Shown: piece by piece, positions 13,405-14,382 of the stretch
Numbering within the stretch: position 1 is the stretch's first letter
Layout: the number at the start of each line of letters is the position of its first letter
Assembly (NCBI RefSeq): GCF_016026235.1
Contig: NZ_CP065613.1
DNA from: Escherichia coli
GTDB lineage: Bacteria > Pseudomonadota > Gammaproteobacteria > Enterobacterales > Enterobacteriaceae
Strand: one strand, 5' to 3'
Length of the DNA: 64,000 nt
Notes under the pieces: generated by a model
The model's database searches: none
What the model saw: only the letters and a program-made list of their open reading frames with translations
What the model was told of the DNA's origin: nothing
Program-made: the position numbers and the translations under genes

Positions 13405-14382
13405 ATGTCTGAACTTATTGCAACTGCCGCTTCCAGCATTAACGCTTTTACTCTGGCAAAGCGTGTCGCCGCCTTTAACGTGCCGGTGCTCATTCAGGGC
13501 GAAACCGGCGCGGGCAAAGAGTGCGTGGCAAAATATATTCACACCGTAGCCTTTGGTGAAAATGAAAACGTCCCCTATATCGGCGTGAACTGCGCGGCGA
13601 TCCCGGAAAACATGCTGGAAGCCACGTTATTTGGCTACGACAAAGGCGCATTTACCGGCGCAATTGCCAGCGTGCCAGGAAAAATGGAACTGGCGAATAA
13701 CGGTACCTTATTACTCGATGAAATTGGCGATATGCCGCTGGCATTACAGGCTAAAATATTACGCGTATTGCAGGAACAGCAGGTTGAGCGATTAGGCAGC
13801 AACCGACAAATTAAACTCAATTTTCGCCTGATTGCCTGCACCAATAAAAACCTTGAACAGGAAGTGGCTGCCGGGCGTTTTCGTGAAGATCTCTATTATC
13901 GTCTGGCGGTTATTCCTATTACCATGCCGCCGCTGCGCGAACGTCTGAACGATATTATTCCGCTGGCAGAGTCATTTATTAAAAAATACTCCACGGTGCT
14001 GGTGAAAAATATCACCCTTTCAGAATCTACCCGCCGTGCGCTGCTCAATTACCGCTGGCCCGGCAACGTGCGCCAGTTGGAGAACGCCATTCAGCGGGGA
14101 ATGATTTTAAACCGCGATGGCGTGATTTACCCGGACGCGTTAGGCCTGCCGGAAAATGACGTTGCCGACCGCAGCGAACTGCAATGGCCTGCCGTCAACA
14201 TTGCTGAAACCAGCGATTTAGGCCAGCACGGACGAAGCGCGCAATATCAATATATCGCCGACCTGATGCGTAAATATCAGGGCAACCGCAGCAAAATCGC
14301 CGACCTGTTAGGCATTACCCCGCGCGCACTGCGTTATCGACTGGCCTCCATGCGCAAGCAAGGTATCGAAGTTTTCTCCTGA
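13405..14382 (+). CDS. lafK: sigma-54-dependent transcriptional activator (AAA+ plus HTH), no receiver domain
   Basis: Walker A GETGAGKE at residues ~33-40; GAFTGA sigma-54 contact motif; C-terminal HTH; upstream in-frame stop at 13327-13329 leaves no room for an N-terminal REC domain. Confidence 0.85.
   Translation: MSELIATAASSINAFTLAKRVAAFNVPVLIQGETGAGKECVAKYIHTVAFGENENVPYIGVNCAAIPENMLEATLFGYDKGAFTGAIASVPGKMELANNGTLLLDEIGDMPLALQAKILRVLQEQQVERLGSNRQIKLNFRLIACTNKNLEQEVAAGRFREDLYYRLAVIPITMPPLRERLNDIIPLAESFIKKYSTVLVKNITLSESTRRALLNYRWPGNVRQLENAIQRGMILNRDGVIYPDALGLPENDVADRSELQWPAVNIAETSDLGQHGRSAQYQYIADLMRKYQGNRSKIADLLGITPRALRYRLASMRKQGIEVFS

Follow-up and report, generated by a model that had tools for sequence, protein, structure and literature searches.

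In the part of the literature on the lateral flagella of Vibrio and Aeromonas that was accessible to us, LafK is described as the sigma-54 activator of the class II genes of these systems. In Escherichia coli Flag-2, as defined for strain 042, lafK occupies the same locus position as the gene studied here. PspF, HrpR/S and LafK have been placed in one group of activators in which a signal domain is missing; this PspF and HrpR/S type, devoid of a regulatory domain, is the "type Ic" of Francke et al. 2011. Sigma-54 sites 5' of lfgB and of lafB have been published for E. coli PCN033. The lafK gene, its role as regulator of Flag-2, the full sigma-54 domain of its product, two target promoters and the missing signal-recognition domain are already in print, and a receiver-less LafK, being an ordinary and described architecture, matters little as a discovery. 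The literature which we searched contains neither an explicit contrast with the receiver-bearing LafK of Vibrionaceae, Aeromonadaceae and Pseudomonas nor a conserved LafK enhancer candidate nor an additional sigma-54 promoter for the flagellin-modification genes, and no published binding site for LafK turned up when we looked for one there.

The window, i.e. the whole 64-kb stretch of E. coli DNA analysed here, harbours a Flag-2 lateral flagellar locus which is bounded by lfhA (about 6788) and lafU (about 46282). The gene under study is flanked by the divergent lfiMNPQR-lfhBA genes on one side and by lfiEFGHIJ on the other, with lfiE (14397) beginning 14 nt past its stop codon and lfiF following at 14743. 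While RefSeq annotates its product as a "sigma-54 interaction domain-containing protein", the gene is lafK, the regulator of the E. coli Flag-2 lateral flagellar system. The synteny lfiM / lafK-lfiE-lfiF is kept in E. coli, Citrobacter, Hafnia and Budvicia, and lafK is located directly 5' of the equivalents of fliE_L-fliF_L(-fliG_L) in Citrobacter, Hafnia, Budvicia, Vibrio campbellii, Pseudomonas fragi and Pseudaeromonas. The name lafK has reportedly been used for the E. coli Flag-2 gene since 2005. The 1.6 kb surrounding lafK are 100% identical to strain FDAARGOS_943, and the lafK region is present at a coverage of at least 80% in 1275 of 5426 complete E. coli genomes (about 23%). The features to which we refer are compiled in Table 1.

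Table 1. Position of lafK, its sequence motifs and the associated regulatory elements within the 64-kb window
Feature	Position	Strand	Remarks
lfiM-lafK divergent intergenic region	13018..13404	.	387 bp; lfiM start at 13017
In-frame TAA	13327..13329	+	exactly 75 nt 5' of lafK ATG
lafK CDS	13405..14382	+	325 aa + stop; sigma-54 enhancer-binding activator without N-terminal regulatory domain
Walker A, GETGAGKE	13498..13521	+	LafK residues 32-39
GAFTGA sigma-54 contact loop	13645..13662	+	LafK residues 81-86
Walker B, LLLDE	13708..13722	+	LafK residues 102-106
Fis-type HTH_8 DNA-binding domain	14245..14346	+	LafK residues 281-314; Pfam
Variable region 1 sigma-54-type promoter CGGCACGCTTATTGCA	26711..26726	-	35 nt before ATG (26676)
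Candidate LafK enhancer CGGAAAATCCATTTCCG	26766..26782	.	centre 48 nt 5' of variable region 1 promoter; non-coding
Candidate LafK enhancer AGGAAATACAACTTCCG	28303..28319	.	centre 59 nt 5' of lfgB promoter; inside first lfgA codons
lfgB sigma-54-type promoter TGACACGGCGATTGCT	28370..28385	+	37 nt before lfgB; -24 GG -> GA at 28372
lafZ, ToxR-like regulator	37715..38614	-	intact ORF; Trans_reg_C at N-terminus
Candidate LafK enhancer CGGAAACGCCATTTCCG	40061..40077	.	centre 48 nt 5' of lafB promoter; non-coding
lafB sigma-54-type promoter TGGCACGCCTTTTGCC	40117..40132	+	32 nt before ATG at 40164
lafS, lateral sigma-28 factor	43764..44480	+	3.6 kb 3' of lafB sigma-54 promoter, same strand

An earlier note on this DNA had called LafK a receiver-less sigma-54 activator and had proposed domain annotation as a check. 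Pfam indeed assigns Sigma54_activat to residues 6-172 (1e-63), AAA_lid_14 to residues 178-246 and HTH_8 to the C-terminus, while no Response_reg match to LafK is obtained even at E<=1. Walker A falls within the first 40 residues, as the earlier note had stated, and together with Walker B and the GAFTGA loop it provides the AAA+ signature of a bacterial enhancer-binding protein (PF00158); the motifs FREDLYYRL and WPGNVRQLEN are both found as well. As regards the DNA-binding property of such proteins, the C-terminal HTH_8 is accompanied by palindromes close to -24/-12 promoters, which we consider candidate enhancers (see below). A receiver with a phospho-acceptor Asp, as it occurs in NtrC-type response regulators (REC-AAA+-HTH), is absent, and the AAA+ match begins at residue 4-6, as in an activator without regulatory domain of the PspF or HrpR/S type. 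Many sigma-54 activator families of NCBIfam match LafK, always via the central and C-terminal parts of the family, and none of these families scores above its own cut-off. Among solved structures, the AAA+ domain of V. cholerae FlrC is most closely related to LafK (E 6e-75), and its alignment starts at LafK residue 4. Since LafK residues 4-234 align to residues 8-238 of PspF (E 8e-53), so that PspF residue 8 corresponds to LafK residue 4, the AAA+ ATPase fold is complete at the LafK N-terminus. Apart from its AAA+ ATPase domain and lid, LafK comprises only a variable linker followed by a Fis-type HTH, and it is about 120 aa shorter than both FlrC and Vibrio LafK. Its catalytic and sigma-54-contact motifs are intact, and LafK may activate the sigma-54 holoenzyme in an ATP-dependent manner; rpoN, a core gene of E. 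coli, lies outside the window. As the protein contains no receiver domain, receiver phosphorylation cannot control LafK, in agreement with what had been claimed before.

A scan of the window for -24/-12 elements yielded three well-placed sigma-54-type promoters, two of them in front of lfgB and lafB and the third one in front of the variable region 1 genes for flagellin lysine-N-methylase / glycosyltransferase. Each of them is preceded by a palindrome. The motif CGGAAA-N5-TTTCCG is found in exact form upstream of both the variable region 1 and the lafB promoter, in either case centred 48 nt from the promoter 16-mer, and the copy upstream of lfgB reads AGGAAA-N5-CTTCCG and is centred 59 nt from its promoter, which is one helical turn more. 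An exact GGAA-N7-TTCC occurs only four times within the 64 kb, and three of these four occurrences lie 48 or 59 nt 5' of Flag-2 sigma-54-like promoters; by chance, a mean of 0.005 promoter-palindrome pairs would be expected (200 shuffles). A comparison of the window with strain 32F4 reveals that the half-sites of the palindromes are retained while their spacers differ. A search of species-representative genomes with LfgB led to 29 Enterobacterales species, and in all 29 of them as well as in Budvicia TGGCA(C/T)-N5-TTGC is present 5' of lfgB, with an exact palindrome centred 59-62 nt 5' of this promoter. An alignment centred on the lfgB palindrome shows invariance solely in the GGAA and TTCC columns, spacer and flanks being free to vary.

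We would like to note that the lfgB copy of the palindrome falls within codons 8-13 of lfgA, and its conservation could partly reflect coding. A second module of promoter plus palindrome, however, is located beyond lfgN in 19 of the 29 species, with a spacing of 48-49 or 57-60 nt, and as it is non-coding it answers the worry that lfgA coding alone conserves the lfgB palindrome. A 17-bp palindrome at fixed helical phase suits a dimeric Fis-type HTH, and LafK is the sole protein of this type encoded by the locus; we therefore propose GGAA-N7-TTCC as the LafK enhancer, an assignment which the sequence comparison makes likely. Another protein could bind the palindrome instead of LafK. Convincing class III promoters did not emerge when we scanned with the enteric sigma-28 consensus.

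The region between lfiM and lafK looks different. About 85 bp of it are taken up by a REP/BIME inverted pair (about 13196-13281), and it includes an AT-rich block common to E. coli and Citrobacter; compared to Citrobacter, E. coli lacks about 190 bp just 5' of lafK and has gained the BIME. There is no clear Shine-Dalgarno sequence before the lafK ATG, and a sigma-70 scan of this intergenic region yielded a single match, of a quality to be expected by chance. In E. coli, Citrobacter, Hafnia and Budvicia alike, the DNA 5' of lafK and of lfiM is devoid of sigma-54 promoters and of GGAA-N7-TTCC palindromes. For this reason lafK, probably together with lfiEFGHIJ with which it is probably co-transcribed, and the export-gate operon look like class I genes which would be transcribed independently of LafK. 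By the same kind of evidence lfgB and the genes following it, lafB and the genes following it (with lafS downstream on the same strand) as well as the flagellin-modification genes look like class II. The suggestion of the earlier note that control may reside in lafK expression is consistent with this distribution, lafK and lfiM lacking a sigma-54 promoter and a candidate enhancer and three downstream operons having both. A regulatory link between lafZ and lafK, the other suggestion made there, is pure speculation.

Our preferred reading, in which we place moderate confidence, is that the lafK product is a sigma-54-dependent, enhancer-binding activator of Flag-2 which acts from the palindrome, whose output is set by its abundance and which goes back to a single loss of the receiver. 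LafK would bind as a dimer of HTHs to the 17-bp palindrome (C/A)GGAA(A/G)-N5-(C/T)TTCC(G/T), the centre of which would be placed 48 or 59-62 nt 5' of the -24/-12 16-mer, i.e. at one of two distances about one helical turn apart. Once bound, it would oligomerise, hydrolyse ATP and remodel the sigma-54 holoenzyme at three promoters. The lfgB promoter would thereby give access to the rod and hook genes and the lafB promoter to those for cap and chaperone, lafS following further downstream on this strand; the promoter of the flagellin-modification genes in variable region 1 would be the third target. The output of LafK would be set by the amount made from the sigma-54-independent lfiM-lafK intergenic region. 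Lacking a receiver, LafK has no phosphorylation switch, and by analogy with PspF and HrpR/S the simplest model, in which the amount of LafK sets the output, is the most likely one. On the same analogy we infer that LafK is constitutively active, although the absence of a receiver does not automatically mean constitutive activity: NtrC without its receiver is inactive, while DctD and NtrC1 without theirs are active.

The analogy also has a reverse side, since PspF and HrpR/S, the architecture of which LafK shares, are both controlled in trans. Instead of being limited by its abundance, LafK might accordingly be restrained by an anti-activator partner protein, from which a signal would then set it free. 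[quoted passage not shown] Against this stands that no candidate partner was found in our analysis and that LafZ belongs to a membrane-anchored DNA-binding type and to no known anti-activator type. We consider this kind of control unlikely.

Whether LafK still has a function to fulfil in the present strain is a separate matter. With the intact Flag-2 locus of strain 32F4 as reference, several lesions become apparent. Of the hook gene lfgE, no more than the last 22 codons (29938-30003) are left, the gene of an 814-aa glycosyltransferase is frameshifted near 22737-22740, and an IS, recognisable by a DDE_Tnp_1 ORF at 25439-26128, resides inside the lysine-N-methylase gene. In addition, the invariant -24 GG of the lfgB promoter has an A in second position, while TGGCA is found at this position in other E. 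coli as well as in 29 other species. [quoted passage not shown] With the hook gene deleted and the -24 element of lfgB mutated, LafK may have little left to regulate here, and lafK might be a still-intact relic within a non-functional Flag-2, useless or driving leftover operons at most. Yet lafK and all cluster-1 genes are intact with dN/dS values of 0.00-0.08 in comparison with another E. coli lineage, and the module at the lafB promoter is intact as well, which renders this possibility rather improbable; moreover, it bears on the strain and not on the identity or the mechanism of LafK. Judged from its sequence, LafK of this strain is probably a working regulator of a broken machine.

The short form of the protein is genuine. 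The earlier note had pointed to an in-frame stop 75 nt 5' of the ATG, and the TAA is found exactly there; the lafK ATG is the first ATG, GTG or TTG which follows it. A hidden upstream segment encoding a REC domain, which had been named as the finding that would overturn the claim, left no trace: a profile derived from Vibrionaceae LafK N-terminal domains detected no receiver remnant in the six frames of the intergenic DNA 5' of lafK in E. coli, Citrobacter, Hafnia or Budvicia (best 0.2 bits, E>=1), the equivalents of this region in the latter three genera measuring 594-641 bp. All named Enterobacterales LafK orthologues among those listed comprise 325-348 aa with an identical set of three domains. 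They originate from Escherichia, Citrobacter, Leminorella, Enterobacter, Pseudescherichia, Scandinavium, Atlantibacter, Siccibacter, Budvicia, Pantoea, Hafnia, Pragia and Regiella, and their uniformity excludes a sequencing error. LafK of the window, with 325 aa, differs from the common E. coli form of 328 aa by a 3-aa deletion in the linker between AAA+ domain and HTH, which leaves the N-terminus unaffected. For lafK, a comparison of the window with E. coli 32F4 gives a dN/dS of 0.03, similar to that of the neighbouring genes; the gene is under purifying selection. Three database proteins of 66-71% identity which carry REC or ACT domains were considered as receiver-bearing LafK and rejected, because in each of them an unrelated activator is fused to the C-terminal half of LafK. 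The joints are located at or adjoining the conserved FREDL.. motif in all three cases, and in two of the proteins the N-terminal part stems from E. coli NtrC or TyrR. One could suspect that the short ORF is artefactual, because a pseudogene has been truncated, a start has been called wrongly or an error in the sequence masks an upstream receiver. These three proteins and the extra length of about 120-140 aa of the Vibrio, Pseudaeromonas and P. fragi orthologues might lend this notion some appeal, but it is refuted and retains a practically negligible probability, as the three proteins are chimeric metagenome assemblies, an in-frame stop lies upstream, space is lacking, no remnant was detected in six frames in four genera and the short form recurs, under selection, in 1275 complete E. 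coli genomes and many genera.

The longer orthologues qualify the picture. The earlier note had proposed an alignment with Vibrio and Aeromonas LafK; as far as the Enterobacterales are concerned this comparison confirms a receiver-less protein, but it does not hold for LafK in general, as the long forms keep a receiver-like domain. A search of representatives at 50% identity, along with cluster look-ups, yielded no named Vibrio or Aeromonas LafK. The Vibrio protein was taken from chromosome II of V. campbellii, the record of which is labelled as a plasmid; there the lateral cluster reads fliM_L / motY_L-lafK-fliE_L-fliF_L-fliG_L and LafK has 444 aa. The best match in Aeromonas caviae was rejected, as it is the polar FlrC with a canonical receiver and with flrB adjoining flrC, and LafK of Pseudaeromonas was used in its place. 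LafK comprises 441-461 aa in Vibrionaceae, 459 aa in Pseudaeromonas and 468 aa in P. fragi, in all cases with an N-terminal receiver-like domain which matches the FleR receiver. In V. campbellii, P. fragi and Pseudaeromonas these long orthologues occupy the syntenic position, the cluster arrangement being of the Enterobacterales type in P. fragi and of the Aeromonas type (flhBA-lafK-fliE) in Pseudaeromonas.

In V. campbellii LafK, the first approximately 120 residues adopt a receiver fold as judged from matches to receivers in the PDB, FleR included (E 1e-6), though the domain remains under the Pfam threshold (22.3 vs 30.2 bits). Its active site is replaced in Vibrio, with DD changed to EP, the phospho-accepting Asp to Ser, Thr to Val and Lys to Arg. 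The N-terminal domain of the Pseudaeromonas protein is more receiver-like than the degenerate ones of Vibrio and P. fragi. E. coli LafK shares about 48% identity with each of Vibrio LafK, FlrC and FleR. In a neighbour-joining tree calculated from 314 columns, LafK of the Enterobacterales forms one clade (100% bootstrap) in which all members are short. It branches from within the long LafK proteins of Vibrionaceae and Aeromonadaceae, with 67% bootstrap at the key node and with FlrC outside, and other short activators are scattered over the tree. As LafK of Vibrionaceae, Aeromonadaceae and P. fragi keeps a receiver-like domain, the Enterobacterales form represents a complete and lineage-specific loss; from the sequences compared, receiver-less LafK is a feature specific to the Enterobacterales Flag-2 lineage. 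Most economically, a receiver which was degenerate by then would have been lost completely, in a single event, at the root of this lineage. The more far-reaching statement that LafK is a natural receiver-deleted derivative of a phospho-dead ancestor and, at the same time, a constitutive, dose-controlled master switch operating via a hitherto undescribed GGAA-N7-TTCC enhancer, placed at a constant one or two helical turns from three sigma-54 promoters, may equally well hold or fail.

What is added to the published description of LafK is, in the first place, that the loss of the receiver appears clean, ancient and confined to Enterobacterales, a decayed receiver being kept in other lateral systems. 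Secondly, a conserved candidate enhancer provides a directly testable LafK regulon and would put lafK atop the Flag-2 hierarchy. Should this be true, the whole LafK regulon, the flagellin-modification cargo genes of variable region 1 included, would be readable from sequence. Thirdly, the fresh lesions in the regulon of this strain illustrate that an intact regulator does not imply a working system.

Among the named systems, LafK of V. parahaemolyticus and V. campbellii comes closest. As in E. coli, the gene is located 5' of fliE_L, fliF_L and fliG_L and encodes an AAA+ domain with GAFTGA and a C-terminal HTH_8; the Vibrio protein is 47.7% identical over the entire length of E. coli LafK. It differs in its N-terminal receiver-fold domain, which is absent altogether from E. 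coli LafK, and the Vibrio cluster differs in that motY_L is inserted between fliM_L and lafK. PspF of E. coli, like LafK, consists of AAA+ domain and HTH without a regulatory domain and, with 325 aa, even equals LafK of the window in length. In sequence it is, however, a remoter relative than FlrC, as the E values given above indicate, and it serves another regulon. PspF is controlled by the binding of PspA; we know of no PspA-like partner for LafK, and none is visible. HrpR and HrpS of Pseudomonas syringae are likewise receiver-less sigma-54 activators, and they control a machine related to type III secretion. They form a hetero-oligomer of two proteins regulated by HrpV and HrpG, whereas LafK is the product of a single gene. 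FlrC of Vibrio, finally, shares the loop EATLFGY(E/D)KGAFTGA with LafK, but FlrC, as well as FleR of Pseudomonas, differs from it by possessing a canonical, phosphorylatable receiver and a cognate kinase.

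Immediately upstream of the lafK start codon (13380-13404, TATATCGTTCACCCTATG) no Shine-Dalgarno sequence is recognisable, and a strong one is likewise absent at lafK of Citrobacter, Hafnia and Budvicia. About 190 bp which in Citrobacter directly precede the lafK ATG are missing from E. coli. Three metagenome-derived database entries carrying REC or ACT domains, P0071, P0076 and P0081, were rejected as LafK homologues since they turned out to be chimeric assemblies. Each consists of an unrelated sigma-54 activator fused, at or beside the conserved FREDL.. motif, to the C-terminal half of LafK, with the N-terminal part originating from E. 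coli NtrC or TyrR in two of the three. Such entries could mislead surveys of domain architecture.

We would like to add that two PLSDB "plasmid" records are in fact chromosomes, namely V. campbellii chromosome II (NZ_CP050465.1, 2.06 Mb) and an A. caviae chromosome (NZ_AP026896.1, 4.94 Mb). Furthermore, CACSKA010000002.1, deposited as "Chryseobacterium sp. 18061", harbours an lfgB region of the Enterobacteriaceae Flag-2 type (80% identity to E. coli LfgB) and is probably mislabelled or contaminated.

A fourth exact copy of the GGAA-N7-TTCC palindrome, the candidate LafK enhancer, is present within lfgG (31235-31249, TGGAAATCGACGTTCCG). No sigma-54-like promoter is found downstream of it, and this copy may represent a chance occurrence or an internal site. 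At the lfgB promoter (28370-28385) the -24 element reads TGACAC instead of TGGCAC owing to a change at position 28372. The GG of this element is retained in E. coli 32F4, our comparison strain for the Flag-2 locus, as well as in all 29 other Enterobacterales species examined. The change is also present in FDAARGOS_943, a strain identical to the window over the 1.6 kb around lafK. It is probably a promoter-down mutation.

The Flag-2 locus is dotted with REP/BIME elements, whose positions are compiled in the table together with two transposase genes.

Repeat elements and transposase genes in and beside the Flag-2 locus
Feature	Coordinates	Strand	Location
REP/BIME pair	13196-13281		between divergent lfiM and lafK
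REP/BIME, three-copy array, 97-nt spacing	33854-34063		upstream of lfgK
REP/BIME	39960-40000		
REP/BIME	29920-29950		
rayT (REP-associated tyrosine transposase gene)	6105-6602		directly outside the Flag-2 locus
DDE_Tnp_1 transposase ORF of the IS element	25439-26128	+	

One lesion concerns the hook gene lfgE, which occupies 1203 bp at the same place in other E. coli strains. Here, in the stretch 29905-30005, it is deleted except for its last 22 codons (29938-30003), which persist between lfgD and lfgF, and a REP element adjoins the deletion junction. In variable region 1 the flagellin lysine-N-methylase gene (minus strand, start at 26676) is broken by an IS element spanning about 25140-26385; in the closest complete genome this gene is unbroken, and other IS copies lie elsewhere in the Flag-2 locus. 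In addition, the glycosyltransferase gene of variable region 1 (814 aa; 21955-24392, minus strand) carries a frameshift near 22737-22740 and is thereby split in two, leaving one ORF of 558 aa and another of 270 aa. In E. coli 32F4 (24326-26409) it is lafW and lafZ that are both annotated as frameshifted, the rest of its Flag-2 locus being intact; which Flag-2 genes are being lost thus differs from one E. coli lineage to another.
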